Source of the DNA: a virus
Taxonomy: Duplodnaviria; Caudoviricetes
DNA length: 64,000 bases
Reading direction: 5' to 3' (one strand)
IMG/VR virus record: IMGVR_UViG_3300043395_004688
Part shown: positions 45,562 to 59,435 of the stretch, piece after piece
Position numbering within the stretch: the first letter of the stretch is position 1
Layout: every line of letters starts with the position of its first letter
The notes under the pieces: generated by a model
Told to the model about the DNA's origin: nothing
The model's input: only the letters and a program-made list of their open reading frames with translations
Database searches by the model: none
Translations under genes and position numbers: made by a program

Positions 45562-45871
45562 TATTAGAAAACCAGGTGATACTGTTTCACTAAAAATGAG
45601 TTCAGGTGAAGAACTTATTGGAACATACAAGGGCGATGATGCTACCAGCTATATCATTGATAGACCGGTGTCATTGACAGCTGGTCCAAATGGAAAACCA
45701 GCTTTGGTTCCATATCTTATGACAGTTAATCCACAGAATGCTAGAGATATCGCATTCAATAAATCTTTAGTAGTTTGCGTTGCAACTACTGAAAAAGAAT
45801 TGGCCACACAGTATTCTTCAGCAATGAGTGGAATAGTAGCGGCACCAGCTGGATTGAGGCTTGATGCATGA
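45551..45871 (+). CDS. Hypothetical protein (Sm-like barrel)
   Basis: GDTVSLKMSSGEELIG...IIDRPVSL pattern. Confidence 0.55.
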   Translation: MLLNIRKPGDTVSLKMSSGEELIGTYKGDDATSYIIDRPVSLTAGPNGKPALVPYLMTVNPQNARDIAFNKSLVVCVATTEKELATQYSSAMSGIVAAPAGLRLDA

Positions 45872-46845
45872 CACGGCCAGTACATAGACTAGGAGACATC
45901 AACGAGTGCGGCGGTGAAATTACAGAAGTAATACAAGGCACCGTATACGCCAATAATCTCTTGGTTAGTATTGACGGCAGTGATGTTGAAAGCGATCAAA
46001 CAGCTAATGGAAGCCAAACTGTTTTTATAAACGGTATACCAGTTAACCGAGAAGGCGACGAGGACGAAAGTGGCTGTGCTAGAGCCGAAGGAAGTCCAAA
46101 TGTATTTGTTGGGGATACGGCTTTTGGTTCTCCTCCGCGAGCACCCAGATCGGCTTTGTTTGTTAAGCCACCAACCCCAATAGCAGCCGATCAGAGTCCA
46201 TATCGCAGAACTGCGCCTCCTCCTACACGAGCCCAGAATGTACAAGCAGGTACTGCGCCCAATAATCCAGGAGTTGCAGACACACCTCCTATTCAAGACC
46301 AACCGGTTACTCAATGCGAACCAGGCAAGCCCAATGTACTAGGCTTCCTAAGCAGGTGCCTTGAAGAAGCAAAAAATGGAACCTGGCGGGAAACTGGGCA
46401 AGGTGGTCGTCCAAGTAATCCAAACATTATCAATATGTGGAGAGACATTGGTATAACATACTATACCAGTGATCAGACACCGTGGTGTGCAGGATTTGTT
46501 TGCTTTGCCATGAAACAAAGCGGAATGAAATACATTAGAGATGCCAATGCTTTTAGTGTTGCAAACAAGTTAGGCAGCGGTAGCGTTGACCCAAACTATA
46601 AAACAGTACCATTAAGCGAGATGAAAGCAGGAGATCTTGTATTATGGGGATCTGGTCATGTCAGCTTTTGCTACACAGCAAATAATGGTAGATATACCTT
46701 TGTTGGAGGCAATCAAATGCCTGGTCGAGCGGCTACACCACCGGTTAGAGACCCCAACAACGACGGGGATGTTACCATAAGTTACCCAGGTGGCTGGGTG
46801 CCTAGTTTAGGTGGTATTACCAAGGTGGTACGCTTAGATTGTTAA
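45868..46845 (+). CDS. PAAR spike protein fused to a CHAP/NlpC-type amidase
   Basis: N-terminal PAAR-type repeats (PVHRLGD, TVFINGIPVNREGD, GSPNVFVG); C-terminal TPWCAGFV, GDLVLW..GHVSF, VGGNQ. Confidence 0.8.
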   Translation: MTRPVHRLGDINECGGEITEVIQGTVYANNLLVSIDGSDVESDQTANGSQTVFINGIPVNREGDEDESGCARAEGSPNVFVGDTAFGSPPRAPRSALFVKPPTPIAADQSPYRRTAPPPTRAQNVQAGTAPNNPGVADTPPIQDQPVTQCEPGKPNVLGFLSRCLEEAKNGTWRETGQGGRPSNPNIINMWRDIGITYYTSDQTPWCAGFVCFAMKQSGMKYIRDANAFSVANKLGSGSVDPNYKTVPLSEMKAGDLVLWGSGHVSFCYTANNGRYTFVGGNQMPGRAATPPVRDPNNDGDVTISYPGGWVPSLGGITKVVRLDC

Positions 46846-46880
46846 ACAAAGCCTTCCATAAATACATGGGAGGCTTTTTA

Positions 46881-47546
46881 ATGTGTGATGCAAAACCAGC
46901 CGGATCCGGCAATGTACTAACTACACCCAGCGGTGTACCATACTATGCTGACAATAAAGCTCAGCGAGCTGGCGAAACTGCTGCAATGGGCCCAGGCGCA
47001 GGCGAGGCTACGCAGCCACCAGGTGGTGATCAGCCTCCTACAGATTTAACAGACTGCACAACCTACACTGACGCCCAATGGGACACAGGATGCAGTGAAA
47101 AATTCAAGTTTGCTCACATGAATAGAAAGCCACAAGGAGGTAGCTGTTCAGAAGCCGAAGTAGCTTGTAACTGGCAAAAGCTTTGCCAAAATATACTTGA
47201 CAAAGTTAAAACACAGTTCCCGGGCATGACAATTAGTTCAGGGTTTAGACCGTCATCTTATGATAGAGAATTAGGCGGAAGCGGAAACGGTGATCATACT
47301 TACGGCAAGGCTGCAGACATACAGCTTGGTGGTGAAGAAGGTGCTAAACAACTTTTTAAATTTATTGGTAGCAGCGGTTTACCATATAGCCAACTAATTT
47401 ATGAAGGAAGATGGGTTCATGTAGCCTACAACGGCGCCAGCCCAGCAAGTGTAGCAGTATTGGTTACTAGAACTGGCAGAGCACCTTATCAAAATGGTGG
47501 CGGTCGTGCTGGATCTGCTCTGCCTCCTGACCTTAGATGGGCATAA
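46881..47546 (+). CDS. Peptidase M15A-family Zn peptidase
   Basis: ISSGFR, GDHTYGKAADI (H-x6-D), QLIYEGRWVHVAY; GGAGG RBS before 46881. Confidence 0.85.
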   Translation: MCDAKPAGSGNVLTTPSGVPYYADNKAQRAGETAAMGPGAGEATQPPGGDQPPTDLTDCTTYTDAQWDTGCSEKFKFAHMNRKPQGGSCSEAEVACNWQKLCQNILDKVKTQFPGMTISSGFRPSSYDRELGGSGNGDHTYGKAADIQLGGEEGAKQLFKFIGSSGLPYSQLIYEGRWVHVAYNGASPASVAVLVTRTGRAPYQNGGGRAGSALPPDLRWA

Positions 47547-47556
47547 GTAAGAGACT

Positions 47557-49377
47557 ATGGCAATTATTCCAGTTATACCCGGTGTACAAGTTGCAACCAA
47601 AGGGATTCTCAATAAGCCACTAAAGGACATTATTTGTGCTTTGCTTTTTGGTGGCCTGGCAAACATGCTCAAAGGACCTCTTTTGTGTATCCAAGCCGAC
47701 CTTGACAAGTTGATCACAGAAAACACTGGCCTACCGGGCATTAAAGATTTACAAAACGAACTGAAAGAATTAAAAAACGAACTCAAGGCTGCTGAAGATC
47801 TGGCAGGAATCAAAGATACCCTGAATCGCATCAATGGTGCAATTGCTGAAGTTCAAAGTCTGTTGGCACTTGATGGTCTTTGTAAAATTCCAATGAAGGC
47901 TCCAAAGATACCAGATGTACTGGGACAAATCATTGATGCTGAATTTGCAGAAATGAATTCAATTTTAAAAGACATTGGAAGACTGGCCAAGCCGCAACTT
48001 TGCTTAAATGGAGATGGTGGAATTAACACTGGTAGTTATAATCCAGAAAGCATCTTGGGTAGCATACAAAAGCATGGCGGCCGCATGGCAGATATTCCCG
48101 GACAAAAAGTCAACGGATTGCTAAACAGAGTTAAAGGTATTAGAACTGCCTTAAACAAGTCAATCAATCGTCAATTGTTCCCTGACTTTAGACACAAAAC
48201 AAATTTGGTAACAGGCAAGCCATATGTGCCAGGACAAACTTTTGCTCAAGCCGGTTTAGTACCTGCTGGTGCATCAAATGCAAATACACCAGTGCCAGTC
48301 ATTACCATGGCACCACCACCACCCTTATCAAATCAATGGAACGGTCCTTATCCACCATCCGAAACGCCAAATCTAAAAGAAGCCACAAATCAAGCCAATG
48401 CAATAGTAGGTAATGTACGGAAGACAGCAAGCTATCCTGTCAAGACAGATGGCATTGTTACTACAAATATTTGGCCAGGGCTAGTTGGTCCTGAAGTTTA
48501 TGCCTTGGCAGTAACAGCACTAACACCACAGGATCCATTCTTTGCTCAGCAAGATCCTATCTACGATTACTGCGGAAAACTAATAGGCTATGAGTCCACA
48601 GTGATTACAGGTGATCCAGCTGACGATGTTGGTGATCCAATCTTAGATGCAGAACTAAATCCTCCAGTAACCAACTTTAATTTTGTCTGGATACAAGATC
48701 GTCAATGCTGGGGTGTTACCGGTGTTCAAAGCGAACAAATTATCAATGGCAGAAAAGACACATATCTAAACGCCAATCCAACTGTTGAATTAAGACGCGG
48801 TTATAGTCATACATTTGGCGTACCCAGTTCTGACATCGGTGGCTTTGTAGTCAACGGCGAAACAGTTAACCCTGCTTCAATAGCCCCTGAATTTTATATT
48901 TGTTATGTCAATGCAGACCTAACGCCTAGACTACAAGACGGCAAAGTAGTAAAGTTTAATCTTGGGCTGAGCAGACTAGAAACATTTGAGTTATTAGACG
49001 ATGCCAATGGTATTGCTGGCAGCGAAGGTCTAGAAAGAAGATTAAACAACCCATTGGGAACCAACATTTACTTCCAAGCCGAAAATAAAGTTTACACAGG
49101 CGAAGAACCGCCTAATGCACCCAATGAAGAAGTGTGGTGGTTCCATCCAATAACCTGCGTGACTAAACGATGGGTTCTAAATAGATATACTGATGCCAGC
49201 GACCCAGACACATTTGGCGATGTCATTGATGGCAGCGGCCAATGGGTTGAAGTCACACAACAGGAACGCGAAGACCGCTGGTTTGGTTCTAGCAATATTG
49301 CCAATGACCCACATGTAAACTATCTTGCTTACAGCAACGAAGATGGAACAATTTTTGGATTGCTGAAGTTTGTTTAA
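47557..49377 (+). CDS. Hypothetical protein (probable baseplate/virion)
   Basis: 606-aa ORF behind TAAGTA, following the spike genes. Confidence 0.65.
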   Translation: MAIIPVIPGVQVATKGILNKPLKDIICALLFGGLANMLKGPLLCIQADLDKLITENTGLPGIKDLQNELKELKNELKAAEDLAGIKDTLNRINGAIAEVQSLLALDGLCKIPMKAPKIPDVLGQIIDAEFAEMNSILKDIGRLAKPQLCLNGDGGINTGSYNPESILGSIQKHGGRMADIPGQKVNGLLNRVKGIRTALNKSINRQLFPDFRHKTNLVTGKPYVPGQTFAQAGLVPAGASNANTPVPVITMAPPPPLSNQWNGPYPPSETPNLKEATNQANAIVGNVRKTASYPVKTDGIVTTNIWPGLVGPEVYALAVTALTPQDPFFAQQDPIYDYCGKLIGYESTVITGDPADDVGDPILDAELNPPVTNFNFVWIQDRQCWGVTGVQSEQIINGRKDTYLNANPTVELRRGYSHTFGVPSSDIGGFVVNGETVNPASIAPEFYICYVNADLTPRLQDGKVVKFNLGLSRLETFELLDDANGIAGSEGLERRLNNPLGTNIYFQAENKVYTGEEPPNAPNEEVWWFHPITCVTKRWVLNRYTDASDPDTFGDVIDGSGQWVEVTQQEREDRWFGSSNIANDPHVNYLAYSNEDGTIFGLLKFV

Positions 49378-49421
49378 CCCTAACCCACATTATCTGGTTG
49401 GCCTTTTGAAAAATAGCTAAC

Positions 49422-49452
49422 TTGACAATACTAGGCAACTGTAGTATAAATA
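49422..49452 (+). promoter_or_regulatory. Promoter of the tmRNA gene (sigma70 and T4-late consensus overlap)
   Basis: TTGACA-17-TATAAA; the -10 extends to TATAAATA. Confidence 0.8.
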
Positions 49453-49456
49453 TCTT

Positions 49457-49733
49457 TATTGCTGTATGAAGCAACGAAAAAGGTGTTCTGGACGCCGGGG
49501 CAGTACCGGCCAGGTCCACCATAAGCATATTGGACAAATGGATACAACTAATATGCTTATGATGGGCCTGAACTAGGATCGACAGGGCAATGAGTATTGA
49601 AGTGGACAGCAGGGTAGGCGATGACCCTAAATCAAGCAAACTCAATAATTGCAAACGACAATTATTACTCTGAGGATCTACGCCTAGCGGCGTAACCCAG
49701 CGGGGCAGGAAAGGCCTTGTAACCCAACAAACC
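49457..49733 (+). ncRNA. ssrA: Circularly permuted (two-piece) tmRNA
   Basis: Acceptor piece ends GCCGG-GGCAGTA-CCGGC-CAGGTCC-A-CCA (49521). Coding piece starts GGGCCTG (49564), giving a 7-bp acceptor stem with G3:U70 and A73. Tag 49651-49695 reads ANDNYYSEDLRLAA*. Outer ends approximate. Confidence 0.93.
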
Positions 49734-49761
49734 AAGAAAGCCCACTTCGGTGGGCTTTCTT
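49734..49761 (+). terminator. Rho-independent terminator after tmRNA
   Basis: AAGAAAGCCCAC-TTCG-GTGGGCTTTCTT. Confidence 0.9.
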
Positions 49762-49776
49762 AGTGTAAATACCTAT

Positions 49777-50748
49777 ATGAGAAAATTCTTCTGTCCTGCG
49801 CCCTGGCGTTCAATTTATTATCATGTTGACAAAGCAGCAGTATGTTGTGTCAGTGCTAAGAAATTTAGCATGACACCAATGCAATTTGTTAACAGTGATT
49901 ATCTCAAAGAGCTAAGGCAAAAATTTTTAAACGAGGAATTTGACGACACCTGTATTACCTGCAAACGCTTAGAGGACGCAGGTTTACAAAGTGTTAGACA
50001 GCACATGGTTGGGCTATATGGAGAGAACATAACTTCTACTATAGATTACATGGAACTACGGACCAGCAATCTTTGTAATTTTCAATGTAAGATGTGCAAT
50101 GCAGAGTCAAGTTCATTGATTGCAAACGAAGTTTTTAACATAACAGATGAAAACTTCAATGAAATATTACTAATTGCTCAAAATTTAAAAACTCTAGTGC
50201 TCACTGGTGGCGAACCAATGCTGATAAAGCATTACTATGAGTTATTAGATCATTTAGCAATGCTTGGCAAACCAGATCTCAACCTACGCATATACACAAA
50301 TGCCAGCGTATACAATCCAATTTTTATAGAAAAGATTTTGAAGTTCAACACTAGGCTACATTTAAGCATTGACGCAGTAGGTGACACAGCAGTTGCACAA
50401 CGAACTGGGACCAACTGGACAGTAGTCAACGAAAATGTCAATAAGTTTTTAGAGCTTCCAATCCGTATTCAATTCCATACCACTCTGACCACAATATCAT
50501 TGTCAGACATTCATTCTTTGGCAAAGTATTTTTTTGATATAGCAACTAAAAAACCATCATGCACTTTTAATATTCATACAGCACGCCGGCCAGCACACTT
50601 GTCTGTGTTTAACATCGACAAAGACGAAATCCCAAAAACTGTTGAAAGCATTGATGCTGCATTAGAGATTCTTACTTTACCAAATTTTAACCAGTTTAGA
50701 AATCAACTGATATCTTGCCGCCGCGCCATAACTGCCAAACTCAAATAA
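49777..50748 (+). CDS. Radical SAM protein with N-terminal Cys cluster
   Basis: SNLCNFQCKMC (CxxxCxxC), LTGGEPML, YTNAS, LSIDA; N-terminal FCPAPW..CC and C..C cysteines. Confidence 0.88.
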   Translation: MRKFFCPAPWRSIYYHVDKAAVCCVSAKKFSMTPMQFVNSDYLKELRQKFLNEEFDDTCITCKRLEDAGLQSVRQHMVGLYGENITSTIDYMELRTSNLCNFQCKMCNAESSSLIANEVFNITDENFNEILLIAQNLKTLVLTGGEPMLIKHYYELLDHLAMLGKPDLNLRIYTNASVYNPIFIEKILKFNTRLHLSIDAVGDTAVAQRTGTNWTVVNENVNKFLELPIRIQFHTTLTTISLSDIHSLAKYFFDIATKKPSCTFNIHTARRPAHLSVFNIDKDEIPKTVESIDAALEILTLPNFNQFRNQLISCRRAITAKLK

Positions 50749-51380: not shown

Positions 51381-51458
51381 TTTGGAAATTACCCAGCAAA
51401 AATCGTGGTAAATACTAGTATGCAGTTTCCACTGCATTTTTTAAAGGAAATTAAACTA

Positions 51459-52022
51459 ATGAAGAAGCTATTTGTAATTGCGGCACTTGCCGTAGCCACT
51501 CTGAGTGGTCAGGCTATTGCAGCCGATTCCGTTACCTTGGAAGGTCAATCCATTCAGGGTCGTGATGGTGCTGCTGATGCCAAAAACTTTAACATGACTG
51601 TTCGTAGAGACATCAACTCTATTCTAAGTGGACATGTTCAAGCTAGTGGCACACAGACTGACACTACAAATGCACTGACAAATCGACTAGAGGCTGGCCT
51701 AACAGCTTCCATCAAGCTTGTTGGTCCATTCAGTGGGTACACAACAGTCGCAGCCGGTGAAGCGTTTAGAGCTGTGGGCAACTACAGTTACTATTCTGTG
51801 GAGCCTGGCGTTCGTGCTGCCCTTGGTGCTGGCCTTTCGGCCCATGCTGGTTATCGCTATCGTGCTGCCTTTGATAGCGCCATTGCTGATACTACCAGTA
51901 CAGCTCGCGTAGGTCTGTCTTATGCCATTACCAAGCAAGACAGCATTGGTGTTCGCTATGACAGAGTCATGCAAGATGCCAAGCAAGATGTTTTTGCATT
52001 GAACTACACTCGTAGTTTCTAA
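51459..52022 (+). CDS. Outer-membrane beta-barrel protein
   Basis: Signal peptide MKKLFVIAALAVATLSGQAIA, amphipathic strands, C-terminal YTRSF; AAGGA RBS before 51459. Confidence 0.8.
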   Translation: MKKLFVIAALAVATLSGQAIAADSVTLEGQSIQGRDGAADAKNFNMTVRRDINSILSGHVQASGTQTDTTNALTNRLEAGLTASIKLVGPFSGYTTVAAGEAFRAVGNYSYYSVEPGVRAALGAGLSAHAGYRYRAAFDSAIADTTSTARVGLSYAITKQDSIGVRYDRVMQDAKQDVFALNYTRSF

Positions 52023-53931: not shown

Positions 53932-54395
53932 AAACTGTATTTTATAAAAAGGTTGGTCGTCGATATGTTCCGGTAAGTGAGTACGACTCGCAACTGTGCG
54001 ATGCCTTTCCCAAAGGCGATCACTTGGTTCAATGTTATCCAGGTGGAAGTCTGCGGAGGTTCAATGTTAATCCTAAGCTTGCACCAATGATTGCGGCTGG
54101 TCGAGTAGCTGAGGAAGAAATCAGTCAAGCTGTTATGAAAGCCAGTGAAATTCATATGCAAAGGTCCGAGCAAGAGCGAGCATTAACTCCAAGTCAAAAG
54201 CAAGCTTGGGAAAATCTCATTCATGAGTTTGGTGAAGGTGCAAGATACCTGGCCTGGCCAAGTGCCAGGGAAATTGCTGAAGCAGGTGTCAATGCAATGG
54301 TTGCTCAAGCTCAAGAATTGCTGTCAAATCCAATGGTAAAAGCAGCTTATGATGAGTTTGAAGCCACTTGTAAATTAGTTTCTCAATCTAAGTAA
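53928..54395 (+). CDS. Hypothetical protein
   Basis: MKTVFYKKVGRRYVPV start, ATGA overlap. Confidence 0.7.
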   Translation: MKTVFYKKVGRRYVPVSEYDSQLCDAFPKGDHLVQCYPGGSLRRFNVNPKLAPMIAAGRVAEEEISQAVMKASEIHMQRSEQERALTPSQKQAWENLIHEFGEGARYLAWPSAREIAEAGVNAMVAQAQELLSNPMVKAAYDEFEATCKLVSQSK

Positions 54396-54962
54396 AACTT
54401 CCTCGCAACTTAGTCTAGTTCTATTAACCTTGCATTGCAATACCACACTAATTGCAATGCGAGGTTTTTCTTTGGTAAACACAACATGCGGTATACCAGC
54501 ATGTATCAAATTGGCGCCACTGAGAACAGCCTCATCTATTAAAATACATTCTTCTCTTGGCCAGCTGAGATAAGGTGACACTTGCTTTTTGTTTAACACA
54601 GTAGGCGCTTTGTTTATGTCAAAGTGGCCTTTGGCACCTTCCTTCAAACTGAACCATTGCATTGGCGCATCCTCGCCCCCAATGATAAAATTTATCTTGC
54701 TACAAGACTCTGTAATATGATCTAAGTCTGTGTGTATTCTACGCACACTACAATGAGCAGGCAAATAAAATATTTCAGCAAAGCTTATGTGCAGGTTCTT
54801 TGAGTCTGCCCACTCAAACAGCTTTGCTGAAAGTTTGCTGGTAGGAAATCCAAAATGTTTTGCGTCGGTTAATTCCCATAGGTAGTCAAACTGTCCATTG
54901 TCATCAACAGCCCATGGGCATTCAATGGCTTGATAGTTTATGCCCATTGCATAGCCTGCCAA
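54375..54962 (-). CDS. Cupin / 2OG-Fe(II)-like protein
   Basis: IHTD...KINF...HAGIPHVV jelly-roll metal motifs. Confidence 0.55.
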   Translation of the reverse strand: MAGYAMGINYQAIECPWAVDDNGQFDYLWELTDAKHFGFPTSKLSAKLFEWADSKNLHISFAEIFYLPAHCSVRRIHTDLDHITESCSKINFIIGGEDAPMQWFSLKEGAKGHFDINKAPTVLNKKQVSPYLSWPREECILIDEAVLSGANLIHAGIPHVVFTKEKPRIAISVVLQCKVNRTRLSCEEVLLRLRN

Positions 54963-55747
54963 TGCATTCTAATAGTAACATAATCTTTTCCAAAATAATC
55001 AGACCCGCGCATGGGCTTAAACAGCAAGCGATTGCAATTTGGATTTGACAATATCTTTTTTACTATGTCCTGTGCTGCATCTGAAGATTTGGCAAAGAAC
55101 ACCTTGTTCTTGCACCACATAAAGGGGAATAACAGATTCTCTTGTTGGGCAAGAACAGTAGCCCAAGTACGAAGCGGCGCACCAGTACACCAATCATCTA
55201 CAATATAAACACCGTTGTTGGATAACAAAGGAACACACCGACGCATGGTTGTTAGGTTTTCTTCTACCCCATCACCATAATCATGATGTATAATATCAAA
55301 TCTCTGCTCGCTGCCTAGTTCAGATTCTGACAGCAGGCATGTTAAATTCAACTGCTTGTTAGTTAGGCGATTGGTTCGTTCAATGATCCACTGTGCAGCT
55401 TCTTCTGGTGCAACAAGTTTTCCTAACTGATTTATTTCTTCAGGTGTCAGGCAGCGGTTAAAATGGTCAGTGTACCAGGCTCCACTACGCCCCTGTGTTT
55501 TTGCTCCAATGAATTCTAAATGATCTACACCAACAAAGTTGACATCAGTATGCCCGGTTTCATACAAGGCTTCGTTGAATGCAGCAACGCCGCCGCCAAT
55601 GTAAGAACCTAGCTCTAAAAAATTGTTAATCTTAGGCAAACTACCAAACAGCATCCAGCTTCCAATGATGTCTTCAGGAGGACTTAGCATACCAAGCTTT
55701 AGCAAGTGTTCATAGATGTTTTTTAAATTGCGCCAGGAATAGTCCAT
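54938..55747 (-). CDS. Class I SAM-dependent methyltransferase
   Basis: FLELGSYIGG motif I, VGVDH, FDIIHHD, GVYIVDD. Confidence 0.78.
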   Translation of the reverse strand: MDYSWRNLKNIYEHLLKLGMLSPPEDIIGSWMLFGSLPKINNFLELGSYIGGGVAAFNEALYETGHTDVNFVGVDHLEFIGAKTQGRSGAWYTDHFNRCLTPEEINQLGKLVAPEEAAQWIIERTNRLTNKQLNLTCLLSESELGSEQRFDIIHHDYGDGVEENLTTMRRCVPLLSNNGVYIVDDWCTGAPLRTWATVLAQQENLLFPFMWCKNKVFFAKSSDAAQDIVKKILSNPNCNRLLFKPMRGSDYFGKDYVTIRMHWQAMQWA

Positions 55748-55769
55748 TTCTTCTCCTATAAATATCTGT

Positions 55770-56315
55770 ATGATCGATAACTATTTTGTCTACGAAACCC
55801 CAGATTTTTTAGACCTTGCCTACATACAGCAACTAGTTATGCAAAAACTAGAAACTGACTTTGTCCGGCAAGGTTATGTGCGTATTGATGCAACGCAAGA
55901 TCTGTACTTGTCATCTGTAATGAGAGATTTTGACTTCCTTGGATCTTGGTTGAACATATATCATACTCCGCAGAACGGTTATATACCGTTGCACATTGAT
56001 GGTCACCGCCTGGCTGCATTCAATATACCCATTAGCGGCTGTGATGAAACTAGTCATACCATATGGTACGAACCAGTTACTGAATGGGTTAAAACTTACA
56101 AGCCAGATGAGCGACACTACCGAGTTTCAGGTGAAATGGTTGAAGTTTATCGATTTTCTCTAACAAGGCCAGCACTAATTCGCAATGATGTTGCTCATGA
56201 TGTGAAAAGAACCAATGCATCTGAAACAAGGATTATTGCCAGTTGGGGATGCAGTGGTTCTTTTAAAGAATGTCGTGATAAATTTAAAGATTGTCTAGAG
56301 AATAAACTTGGTTGA
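55770..56315 (+). CDS. Cupin / 2OG-Fe(II)-like protein
   Basis: IPLHIDG...FNIPI...NDVAHDV...R..AS. Confidence 0.6.
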   Translation: MIDNYFVYETPDFLDLAYIQQLVMQKLETDFVRQGYVRIDATQDLYLSSVMRDFDFLGSWLNIYHTPQNGYIPLHIDGHRLAAFNIPISGCDETSHTIWYEPVTEWVKTYKPDERHYRVSGEMVEVYRFSLTRPALIRNDVAHDVKRTNASETRIIASWGCSGSFKECRDKFKDCLENKLG

Positions 56316-57185
56316 ATCTAACTCAAGTCCACTAAAAATGTCTCCGTCGGCCAGCATATCAAAGGGATGCTTTTTGCCATAAAATTCATTTTGTGTCCAG
56401 CATTGGTCAACAGGATCGTAATCCCACCAAGGGCTAAATCCCAATACAAAATGAATCCTTGGGTGCGCCGACGGTGCATTGGCAAAAACTCTATGTGGAA
56501 TATGTGTATCCCAGCTGTATGCATGTCCAACAGGCAAATGCGTAGCTGGCTTGCCTTCAATTTCAAAAAGATAATCTTGATTGGTTAATATTGGAATGTT
56601 AATTCTAATATTTTCAAAGATGCGCTCATCCTTGTGCCAGCCACCTTCTTCTTTTCTGCGCTGATCAAAAGCAGTATCTCCGTGGATAATGCTTAGTCTA
56701 CTGCGTATGCGAGTGCGCTTGCTTCTGGCCATTAGCTCACCTATGCTTTTGAATCCACTGGCCATGGTAGGAGAATTCATCCCGTAGCCATCAAAATAAC
56801 CATTTTTTAAGACCTTGTGCTCAACTGTAACTCCATAAAAAAATCCACCATTGAGTAAGCTGTTGAGAGCAGTTCCTAGGGTACTTGAGTGCTGATCTAG
56901 CGAGTCAACGTGATTGGGATTATGTACCAAGCTGAAACCGGTGTAGTAGTCACTGATTCCATCGCTGGAAATCCAGCCATGCTCTCCATAGATTTTAGTA
57001 GCTTCCCAAATGTCATTGGTGAGAACTTGAGGGTCAAAATCTTTAATGTTAAAACAAAGCAACTTGTTGTAGTCACGAGCTGGCTTTACAGCTCGTTGAG
57101 CGTCCTTCCAATCGCTTTGACTATACAGCCATTTTATTATGGTGCTAGAGTCTGGGCAATCTTTGACATAGTATTTTTTTGACAT
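56295..57185 (-). CDS. Asp/Asn beta-hydroxylase-like 2OG-Fe(II) oxygenase
   Basis: WHKD...RINIPILTN...HLPVGHAYSWDTHIPHRV...RIHFV. Confidence 0.7.
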   Translation of the reverse strand: MSKKYYVKDCPDSSTIIKWLYSQSDWKDAQRAVKPARDYNKLLCFNIKDFDPQVLTNDIWEATKIYGEHGWISSDGISDYYTGFSLVHNPNHVDSLDQHSSTLGTALNSLLNGGFFYGVTVEHKVLKNGYFDGYGMNSPTMASGFKSIGELMARSKRTRIRSRLSIIHGDTAFDQRRKEEGGWHKDERIFENIRINIPILTNQDYLFEIEGKPATHLPVGHAYSWDTHIPHRVFANAPSAHPRIHFVLGFSPWWDYDPVDQCWTQNEFYGKKHPFDMLADGDIFSGLELDSTKFIL

Positions 57186-57306
57186 AACGCTTCTTTTTCT
57201 CCAAATCTTGATAAGTAGCTGAGCAAAGATATTTAGTTACTACACTTCAGCATAAATAACTCATAGAAACAGTCTCATATTAGTGAGATAAATTTGGAGA
57301 ACAGCA

Positions 57307-57618
57307 ATGTTTGTAATCACTCAACATTTTAGAAAACCTGATGAGGAAGGCTCCTTTTACAGCTTCCCAGCAGATTATCAATCGCACATTAATAACACTT
57401 ATAGAAGCACAAACAAGCTTCTGGATACCACTGCTGAATTCAATGCAGTTGATAAAGTACTGATTGTAGTAAATCGCTGGGCCAGCGAAGCTGCTTTCAA
57501 TGAGTACAAGGCAGATCCGGTGGTAGTGCAGAATTTAGCAGCACGTGAAACTTATAATACAGCGAATGGCATTAACATGACTCTTCGTGCTACACACGAA
57601 GAAGCTGATCCTGTTTAA
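57307..57618 (+). CDS. ABM/dimeric alpha-beta barrel-like small protein
   Basis: LIVVNRWASEAAFNEY pattern; GGAG RBS; TAAATA upstream. Confidence 0.5.
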   Translation: MFVITQHFRKPDEEGSFYSFPADYQSHINNTYRSTNKLLDTTAEFNAVDKVLIVVNRWASEAAFNEYKADPVVVQNLAARETYNTANGINMTLRATHEEADPV

Positions 57619-57646
57619 TTAAATTTTAACTTAACTTAGACCAATG

Positions 57647-57675
57647 TGAATCCGGCGTCGCCGGATTCATTTTTT
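57647..57675. terminator. Terminator between convergent genes
   Basis: TGAATCCGGC-GTC-GCCGGATTCA-TTTTTT. Confidence 0.85.
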
Positions 57676-58785
57676 AAAAGAGTTGTTGGGATTATAAAAG
57701 CTATCTAAGTCACCAACAAAATTAAAATCGTTATCCATACCAACATGAGCATGTCTGGCTCTAACAATGTGATATAGGCTTCCATACTTGGACTTGTGTT
57801 CGTATGCCGAATCTTGCATAAAGTCAGCTACTAGTTTTCTAGGATACCATTTGGTAGAATCTGGTGTACCTTTGTGTTTGTGTTCCCGGTTAACCATGGC
57901 CCAGAGCTGAAACTCTTTGCTGGAGTAAAAGTGATCAAATCGTCCTTGCTCCATGATCTCGGCGTCAATGCCAACTTCGCCTGAGTTAAACATAAGCAAA
58001 TTTTGAAAAAAGCAAGATGTCCATTTTCCGGTTAAGTTCAAATACCAAAACAAGTCCCAGAGGCTAGAGATTTCGAATTTGGCTCGTCGAGCTAGCTTGG
58101 CCAACAGATCAGCATAAAATTCAGCATCGCTTAATTCTAGTTTAGCCCAAACAAAGTAGTCGACCAACTTTGCTTCTGACCACGGTTTAAGCAATTCTTC
58201 CATGCTAGTCCAATGCAATAGCGGACAGGTTTGGGTGGCTGGATGAAACAGCTGATCATTGAGTTCACCTGAAATTAGTATTGCATTTTTTTCTAATTTT
58301 ATACCAAAGTCAAACGCATTGATTAGTTTAATGTTGCTTCGCCGGATAAACTTTTCCCACATTGTGGGATTTTCTTCTCGGCTTAGATTAGTCATCACCA
58401 GTTCAATTCGGTGACCACATTGCTCTATGCCTAGTCGTTCAATAAAGCTAGAAAGTATTAGGCTAGAATCAATGCCACCAGAGTACATGATCCTAATAGG
58501 ACCATCTATTTTTTCCTGGCGGTGTAATAGTTCCGAGACTCTGGCTTGGCAGCATTCAACATATGACATTGAAAACTTTTCATCATAGTCCGGTAAAGCC
58601 AATGATTCAGGATAGCCTACATTGATTGGCAAGTTAATGGTACCTGTGCGATCAATATATGATGAGCTGGCTGTCAGTATAGAGCTGTACAAAAGTTTCC
58701 ACAAGCGAATGTCTTCGCTGTCGCCTTTGAAGTTTGAGGAGTGGTAGGCGTATAGTTGCTGTGTCATACAAATCCGTTTTTCCAA
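57667..58785 (-). CDS. Asparagine-synthetase-C-like PP-loop ATPase
   Basis: IMYSGGIDSSLIL and ILISGELNDQLF; no N-terminal glutaminase domain. Confidence 0.7.
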   Translation of the reverse strand: MEKRICMTQQLYAYHSSNFKGDSEDIRLWKLLYSSILTASSSYIDRTGTINLPINVGYPESLALPDYDEKFSMSYVECCQARVSELLHRQEKIDGPIRIMYSGGIDSSLILSSFIERLGIEQCGHRIELVMTNLSREENPTMWEKFIRRSNIKLINAFDFGIKLEKNAILISGELNDQLFHPATQTCPLLHWTSMEELLKPWSEAKLVDYFVWAKLELSDAEFYADLLAKLARRAKFEISSLWDLFWYLNLTGKWTSCFFQNLLMFNSGEVGIDAEIMEQGRFDHFYSSKEFQLWAMVNREHKHKGTPDSTKWYPRKLVADFMQDSAYEHKSKYGSLYHIVRARHAHVGMDNDFNFVGDLDSFYNPNNSFKK

Positions 58786-59435
58786 AAGTGATTTTGGATT
58801 CTTTGTCTAATAGTTTTAACTTCTCTAATTGTTTGCGCGACTCTAATTTCCTCAAGAAACTTTTTTTGATACGAGTAGATCCTAAACTTTTTTGTTTGTC
58901 TTTCGTGATAGTCAAAATTTAACTCTCGCAGGGCCTGTTCCGTAGTTAACCCATTGGCAAGAGCATATTCTTGAAGCAGTTCTTCGTTGGTCAGGGCATA
59001 TTCAACTGCGCTGTCGTAGTCTATGTCTCCATAACCCATTGCATATTCACCCAGTATGAGATAACAAGTAAACAGCATGTTTTTTATAGCCGACGCTTTT
59101 TCAGCTACCAATAACTTTTTATCCACAAGTGCTTCTGTGTCATTAATGATTTCTATTAGATCAACTTGTCTGTTCCAACGATCCTCCTTCCACTTGCGAT
59201 GATTTTCGAGAGTAAAGGAAGGAGTGGCAAACTTCGCTACAGGTGAATCAAATTGTACAGTTCTTGTAATTGAATTAAAGGTAATTTTTCTCAACTCAGT
59301 TATAACCGGTAAACCAAACTGCGGAGTCAAAGGAGTGGCGTACAACACAGCCTGAGTTGATAAGTCAATGAGGAAGCATCCAGGATATTTGATGCGGCCT
59401 GACTCAAGTGTTTTACGCTTTTCCTTTGCCATCAA
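58764..59435 (-). CDS. Hypothetical protein
   Basis: 223-aa ORF coupled within the minus-strand operon. Confidence 0.65.
   Translation of the reverse strand: MMAKEKRKTLESGRIKYPGCFLIDLSTQAVLYATPLTPQFGLPVITELRKITFNSITRTVQFDSPVAKFATPSFTLENHRKWKEDRWNRQVDLIEIINDTEALVDKKLLVAEKASAIKNMLFTCYLILGEYAMGYGDIDYDSAVEYALTNEELLQEYALANGLTTEQALRELNFDYHERQTKKFRIYSYQKKFLEEIRVAQTIREVKTIRQRIQNHFWKNGFV

Follow-up and report, generated by a model that had tools for sequence, protein, structure and literature searches.

A circularly permuted tmRNA gene in a fragment of a freshwater T4-like jumbo phage

Results

The window analyzed here, a stretch of 64,000 nucleotides, corresponds to bases 205-64204 (minus strand) of a 177,701-bp IMG/VR record that is labelled 'provirus' and is estimated to be 53% complete. 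The record encodes a T4-type major capsid protein, gp23, with 62-65% identity to its best isolate matches, the capsid proteins of the jumbo phages Phosso (469 kb, 65%), CBB, GAP32 and PA5oct, and it is a fragment of an uncultured freshwater T4-like jumbo phage. The tmRNA gene described below is preceded in the window by nrdA, nrdB and genes for a PAAR-CHAP protein and an M15 peptidase, and it is followed by genes for a radical SAM enzyme and a phosphoesterase of a phage family. In the segment from 45868 to 47546, a short way upstream of the tmRNA, a PAAR domain is fused to a CHAP amidase, with the M15 peptidase coming next. The sequence-only reading of this DNA had placed the tmRNA in a gap without a credible open reading frame; the gap does hold a mechanical antisense frame (49289-49735, TTG start, 148 amino acids), for which no family match was obtained.

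The gene lies on the plus strand and consists of two pieces in circularly permuted order, with the CCA end (49521) located upstream of the acceptor G1 (49564). The acceptor piece, which forms the 3' tRNA-like half (49458-49521, approximately 64 nt), was delimited from the sequence, ARAGORN, Rfam and RNAalifold. It contains a T-stem that can be read directly from the sequence (49494-49498 with 49506-49510, enclosing the loop GGCAGUA at 49499-49505), followed by the 3' strand of the acceptor stem, CAGGUCC (49511-49517), A73 (49518) and an encoded CCA (49519-49521). The coding piece (49564-49762, approximately 199 nt) comprises the 5' tRNA-like half and the message part and begins with the 5' acceptor strand GGGCCUG (49564-49570), which forms seven pairs with CAGGUCC. 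The acceptor stem carries the alanine identity elements, namely G3:U70 (G49566:U49515) and the discriminator A49518. The two pieces are further joined by helix 2, in which UGUUCUG (49485-49491) pairs with CAGGGCA (49583-49589), and by helix 5, formed by the strands 49460-49465 and 49606-49611. As the only such element observed in the message domain, the Rfam alignment shows a hairpin after helix 5 (approximately 49611-49631), and the D-loop analogue of the coding piece, UAGGAUCGAC, is of the alpha type. The T-loop lacks U54, U55 and A58, which is usual for alphaproteobacterial tmRNAs. Between the two pieces lies an intervening segment of 42 nt (49522-49563), predicted to be removed on maturation, which contains no open reading frame and folds (-11.6 kcal/mol) into a 12-bp hairpin (49522-49533 with 49548-49559) stacked on the acceptor stem. 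When the minimum-energy cofold was considered alone, the acceptor stem and the T-arm were recovered (z approximately -5), with helix 2 exchanged for a non-conserved pairing, and for this reason the comparative structure was preferred.

ARAGORN and three covariance models gave a concordant picture of the gene. ARAGORN called a permuted tmRNA at 49429-49786 (plus strand) with the tag ANDNYYSEDLRLAA followed by a stop. The Rfam model tmRNA_permuted (RF04321) matched with 135.7 bits at 49460-49695 over its full length (model positions 1-213), beta_tmRNA (RF01850) with 114.3 bits at 49408-49762 over all 331 model positions, and alpha_tmRNA (RF01849), in a separate search, with 89.8 bits; all three scores exceed the respective Rfam cut-offs of 47, 84 and 50 bits. 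The sequence-only reading had described a circularly permuted, two-piece tmRNA and had named ARAGORN and the two subtype models as the means of checking it; the permuted call and three covariance models above threshold, both subtype models among them, bear that description out. The T-arm, acceptor stem, G3:U70, A73, CCA end and helix 2 that it had named were likewise all found in place, and its tag frame ending in LAA was read identically from the sequence and by ARAGORN. Overall, that earlier observation proved correct in nearly every detail.

The gene appears to have its own transcription signals. A sigma70-like promoter on the plus strand (49422-49450) consists of TTGACA (49422-49427), a 17-nt spacer and TATAAA (49445-49450), and transcription likely starts near 49458. 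The promoter bases align to the UUGA...UAuAAU columns of the Rfam beta_tmRNA model, and the position of the -35 box is kept in related loci, as TTGACA in L012 and L013 and as TTGCCA in L004. At the other end, a terminator-like hairpin with 12-bp arms and a UUCG loop (49734-49761, plus strand) aligns to the closing hairpin of beta_tmRNA and shows compensatory changes in L012 and L013 (GCCCAC/GUGGGC to GGCUAC/GUAGCC); its U-run lies within the 3' arm, and a free U-tract does not follow. A simple consensus scan of the window for promoters and terminators listed neither element, because the -10 box ends in A (five of six positions) and the U-run is inside the stem. Judged from sequence conservation, the promoter and the terminal hairpin are probably real regulatory elements, and the earlier claim of a dedicated promoter and terminator is thus upheld for a conserved promoter and a covarying hairpin, but has to be qualified with regard to the imperfect -10 box and the missing free U-run. 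A T4-type late promoter, TATAAATA, overlapping the -10 box was also considered and rejected, its motif occurring three times in the window versus 2.6 times expected.

Comparative folding supported the proposed structure. When the window and six viral relatives (seven sequences) were submitted to RNAalifold with no structure supplied, the program found the T-arm, the acceptor stem, both helices 2 and 5 and, in addition, a stem within the intervening segment, and 25 of the 48 predicted pairs showed compensatory changes. Helices 2 and 5 (columns 38-44 with 188-194, columns 12-16 with 211-220) both contained such changes. The acceptor stem showed no variation in the seven relatives. The stem of the intervening segment that adjoins the acceptor covaries, and the length of this segment is very variable, reaching approximately 440 nt in Phosso and being likewise long in L005 and L013.

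The tag is encoded by a 14-codon frame at 49651-49695 (plus strand), which starts with the resume codon GCA (49651), ends in LAA and is closed by TAA (49693-49695). In the closest relative, L007, the tag ANDDYFYQDLKLAA has equal length and is separated from ANDNYYSEDLRLAA by four synonymous and five conservative codon changes, and a natural variant found in river RNA libraries, A49667T, replaces Tyr by Phe in the tag. The codon changes in L007 together with the Tyr/Phe variant therefore indicate that the message part is under coding constraint. In addition, the tag end (E/D)-D-(L/I/V)-R-L-A-A is recurrent in other viral tmRNAs, for example in L009, L070, L118 and L061.

The tmRNA sequence was found in many freshwater and river metagenomes and also in RNA libraries, whose data are assembler contigs that carry neither transcript ends nor strand. 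In three river metatranscriptomes, contigs approximately 98-99% identical to the gene were confined to 49489-49740, with zero depth over the flanking genes, a pattern that fits a discrete, abundant RNA; around the coding piece these contigs span 49544-49722. Related tmRNA pieces were present in a lake library at word depths of 39-52. One RNA-library contig of a relative represents precursor or DNA, since it spans the intervening segment.

The surroundings of the gene are conserved in a related viral genome of 363,943 bp (G002), which is 100% complete according to CheckV and contains homologues of 40 of the 72 open reading frames of the window. In G002 the tmRNA (298.6-298.8 kb) comes after homologues of nrdA (306.2-303.9 kb) and nrdB and a small gene, and it is followed by a homologue of the window gene at 51405-52022 (298.1-297.6 kb), so that the order is the same as in the window. 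The synteny of the tmRNA holds across phages that share only about 42% identity in their ribonucleotide reductase proteins.

In its own coordinates, the record begins inside an array of tRNA genes for Thr, Val, Ala, Leu, Glu and Gly (G000:C1:43-2305, corresponding to window positions of about 61900-64000 and beyond), and the relatives G002 and G004 have tRNAs that are 84-94% identical to these. As this end of the record falls inside the array, the 'provirus' boundary or contig end cuts the phage's own tRNA cluster. The IMG/VR label 'provirus' is probably a classification error. Related jumbo-phage contigs contain a tRNA with a CUA anticodon of the amber-suppressor type, labelled 'Pyl' by ARAGORN (L005:1932-2007, L013:7693-7766 and L015:2184-2257). 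Between the tmRNA and the tRNA array lies a block of approximately 7 kb (54375-61730) with nine or so open reading frames on both strands, flanked by phage genes and phage tRNAs. This block, previously read as a tailoring-enzyme island, yielded no PHROG match and no homologue in G002 and looks like a lineage-specific accessory island.

A gene for SmpB was found neither in the record, which represents about half of the genome, nor in G002, in a second CheckV-complete viral genome (G003) or in Phosso. Searches of the record for an RF-1/ArfB-type domain were also negative, and a partner protease, adaptor or ArfB-like factor was not found. The sequence-only reading had proposed host SmpB from the window alone; as the phage gene is missing from this wider set as well, it is reasonable to infer that the RNA uses SmpB of the host. 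By analogy with the known tmRNA pathway, the RNA would rely on host SmpB, AlaRS, EF-Tu, RNase P and proteases.

Discussion

Two-piece tmRNAs of phages have already been documented in aquatic and giant phages, and the gene described here adds a well-supported case from a freshwater jumbo phage. Among 18,146 phage genomes, Buchholz et al. (2022; PMC9004378) identified 133 distinct tmRNAs, 53 of them two-piece, and 50 of these 53 came from marine or aquatic phages. The premise of the sequence-only reading that phage tmRNAs are mostly one-piece fails for aquatic phages. The table of that study includes the phiCbK group, several cyanophages, HTVC008M, Mosig and others (PMC9004378). A tmRNA database published in 2025, from which the permuted model used here was taken, comprises 11,946 permuted sequences and counts 79 bacteriophage sequences (PMC11915505), and the Sinorhizobium jumbo phage AP-J-162 was published with one tmRNA (PMC11242549). 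Our own searches confirmed permuted tmRNAs in HTVC008M (90.6 bits), S-CRM01, S-SSM7 and phiCbK. The gene of the window resembles those of Methylophilales phage Melnitz, the Pelagibacter phages HTVC008M and Mosig, the Caulobacter phiCbK group and the cyanophages S-CRM01 and S-SSM7 in that a permuted ssrA is carried by a large lytic phage of aquatic bacteria, with no phage SmpB reported (PMC9004378). In contrast to these systems, however, the carrier is a jumbo phage of the Rak2/GAP32/PA5oct type rather than a Kyanoviridae-type myophage or a siphophage. A further difference concerns the glutamine riboswitch of Melnitz and Mosig, for which no hit at the Rfam gathering threshold was obtained in the window and which was present only in an unrelated locus, L011. 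Caulobacter is named as a bearer of the alphaproteobacterial two-piece tmRNA by Keiler et al. (2000), as cited in PMC9004378. In the Caulobacter phage phiCbK itself (NC_019405), the permuted tmRNA has a neighbour at a distance of about 500 nt, namely a GOLLD RNA (approximately 102.3-102.8 kb; L149:506-992) that contains a tRNA and scores 165.3 bits with RF02032 (cut-off 150).

At the nucleotide level, blastn of the tmRNA gene against 50,697 records of phage isolates gave no match, and a query with an alpha-type viral tmRNA gave only chance matches among phage isolates. The nearest isolate by capsid protein, the Sinorhizobium phage Phosso (PV764938), also has a permuted tmRNA and a PAAR gene nearby. 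The Phosso gene scores 113.3 bits with the permuted and 108 bits with the alpha model and has the T-loop GGCGGUA. It differs from the gene of the window in its acceptor stem, in its tag and in the length of the intervening segment, given above, which measures only 42 nt in the window. The Phosso tmRNA (L138:1501-2103, equivalent to PV764938 349596-350198, minus strand) is unannotated in its record and was missed by ARAGORN.

With respect to bacterial subtypes, the gene seems to be mixed. Features shared with alphaproteobacterial tmRNAs (RF01849) are the gene order, the T-loop GGC(A/G)GUA, the D-loop analogue UAGGAUCGAC and a tag starting with ANDN; in the Rfam alignments the alpha consensus has the T-loop GGCgGUA and the D-loop analogue AuAGGAUCGAC, the latter corresponding to CUAGGAUCGAC in the window. 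Nevertheless, the gene scores lower with the alpha than with the beta model. Betaproteobacterial tmRNA (RF01850) is the best-scoring subtype model and matches over its whole length, promoter columns and closing hairpin included, and the hairpin after helix 5 as well as both flanks fit the beta model better. However, the consensus T-loop of beta as well as cyanobacterial tmRNAs is UUCGAUU, from which the phage loop GGCAGUA differs at five of seven positions, and one 3' hairpin of the beta model is not formed in the phage gene, its pairs being marked as non-standard in the alignment. We therefore describe the gene, on these sequence features, as apparently combining an alpha-like tRNA-like domain and tag start with a beta-like body and flanks, and assign it to neither subtype, because both models passed their thresholds. 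The idea that the T-loop is specific to phages was discarded, given that GGCAGUA matches the alphaproteobacterial consensus. A pattern search of IMG/VR for the GGCAGUA loop returned at least 120 contigs with covarying T-stems. Among sister viral genes that share both the acceptor stem and the T-stem, the T-loops GGCAGUA, UGCGAUU and UUCGACU occur, i.e., alpha, intermediate and canonical forms, and sister viral contigs have tags of the form ANDE(R/K/Q)FALAA, which we take to be betaproteobacterial in style.

Outside viruses, a scan of 185,579 bacterial species genomes for the exact 3' tRNA-like arm gave a match in just one of them, a metagenome-assembled genome in which the arm lies on a short contig of uncertain origin. 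The gene has therefore not been copied recently from any species representative with a sequenced genome. This contig (L016; NZ_JBBAKG010000090.1, 23 kb) is binned with Haliscomenobacter (Bacteroidota) and encodes a permuted tmRNA of proteobacterial style with the T-loop UGCGAAU and the tag ANDEQFALAA; it is the sole match to the tmRNA 3'-end pattern in that 6.9-Mb genome, its open reading frames are almost all unrecognized, and it is probably a mis-binned phage contig.

Taken together, we consider it likely that the gene encodes a working two-piece tmRNA (ssrA) that has been passed on vertically within one lineage of T4-like jumbo phages from fresh water. What the analysis shows are the structure of the gene, its place in the tmRNA family, its covarying helices, a tag under coding constraint, its syntenic phage surroundings and its occurrence in RNA libraries, and the steps proposed below are inferred from the established tmRNA pathway on the assumption that the RNA is compatible with host SmpB and AlaRS. 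Host RNA polymerase would transcribe the gene into a single precursor, starting at the sigma70-like promoter and stopping at the terminal hairpin, and host tRNA-processing enzymes would mature it, with RNase P cutting before G49564 and 3' trimming proceeding to the encoded CCA at 49521. This processing would eliminate the intervening 42 nt with their hairpin, and the resulting RNAs of approximately 64 and 199 nt would stay joined by pairing in the acceptor stem and in helices 2 and 5. Host AlaRS may then charge the RNA by virtue of G3:U70 and A73, and host SmpB and EF-Tu would bring it to ribosomes stalled on broken mRNAs. Translation would resume at GCA, append ANDNYYSEDLRLAA and stop at TAA, thereby freeing the ribosome and marking the tagged peptide for ClpXP-type proteolysis. 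The likely benefit for the phage would be a supply of free ribosomes during the cleavage of both host and phage mRNAs, when expression of the host's own ssrA breaks down.

The origin of the gene has to be considered in this context, as the label 'provirus', the position 14 kb from the record end and the downstream 7-kb block that has neither PHROG match nor G002 homologue could be taken to indicate a host ssrA at the edge of a prophage or a chimeric assembly, all the more since tmRNA genes are classic integration sites (PMC12595487). Yet the GC content through and around the tmRNA region is uniform (0.41-0.45), phage genes lie on both sides, and related viral genomes hold counterparts of the genes at 50.8-54.4 kb as well as of the tRNAs at 61.9-62.4 kb. 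Moreover, the record ends within a phage-type tRNA array, no integrase was seen near the gene, and T4-like phages are not known to integrate. The tmRNA of the isolate Phosso and the same position in the complete 364-kb relative speak against a host gene, the latter indicating a stable phage gene and not a host attachment site, and a host origin thus appears extremely improbable. The view of the sequence-only reading that the phage supplies its own ribosome-rescue RNA is, in turn, supported by the flanking phage genes, by gp23 and by the synteny with G002.

A phage-borne RNA of this kind could also act in other ways. For mycobacteriophage DS6A, which has an RNA consisting of the tRNA-like domain only, a decoy role was proposed. 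According to Hudson et al. (2014; PMC4131195), a molecule limited to this domain is a strong inhibitor of tmRNA and may act by titrating SmpB. Similarly, the RNA described here might bind SmpB of the host, possibly together with AlaRS or EF-Tu, and thereby block or divert host trans-translation, in favor of which the missing phage SmpB and the near absence of the exact 3' tRNA-like arm from bacterial genomes could be cited. However, a decoy has no need of a message part, and here the resume codon, the 14-codon frame, the stop and the LAA end are kept under coding-type constraint, and covariation is seen in helices 2 and 5, by which the message part is positioned, making a pure decoy very unlikely. 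A working tmRNA could, on the other hand, serve a more specific purpose through its own tag, either countering host abortive-infection nucleases that cleave mRNA or tRNA or tagging host proteins early in infection for amino-acid recycling, an idea raised by Buchholz et al. (2022; PMC9004378). The recurrence of the tag end among viral tmRNAs and the phage's own tRNAs, including tRNA-Ala, are in line with such a role; nothing in the sequence, however, separates it from general ribosome rescue, and a dedicated protease, adaptor or ArfB-like factor is not apparent, so that we regard it as unlikely, if the least so of these alternatives. General ribosome rescue by a working tmRNA accordingly remains our preferred reading.

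The fixed locus of the tmRNA in a diverged 364-kb relative is evidence for long vertical retention and argues for lasting selection and against accidental capture. Since the synteny extends across ribonucleotide reductases of about 42% identity, alpha and beta features are mixed and only a single bacterial match was found, it is conceivable, though in our estimation a long shot, that this tmRNA lineage evolves inside jumbo phages and was not copied from the current host. If this were true, such phages could have carried the permuted form between Alphaproteobacteria and the betaproteobacterial lineage, and tmRNA type would be unreliable for predicting the host of a phage. It was already noted for Melnitz that the type of tmRNA need not match the host (PMC9004378), and the mixed character of the present gene likewise calls for caution when phage hosts or host switches are deduced from tmRNA type. 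Finally, the gene may be used as a test case for what a phage gains from a tmRNA and for whether such an RNA functions with the SmpB of its host.
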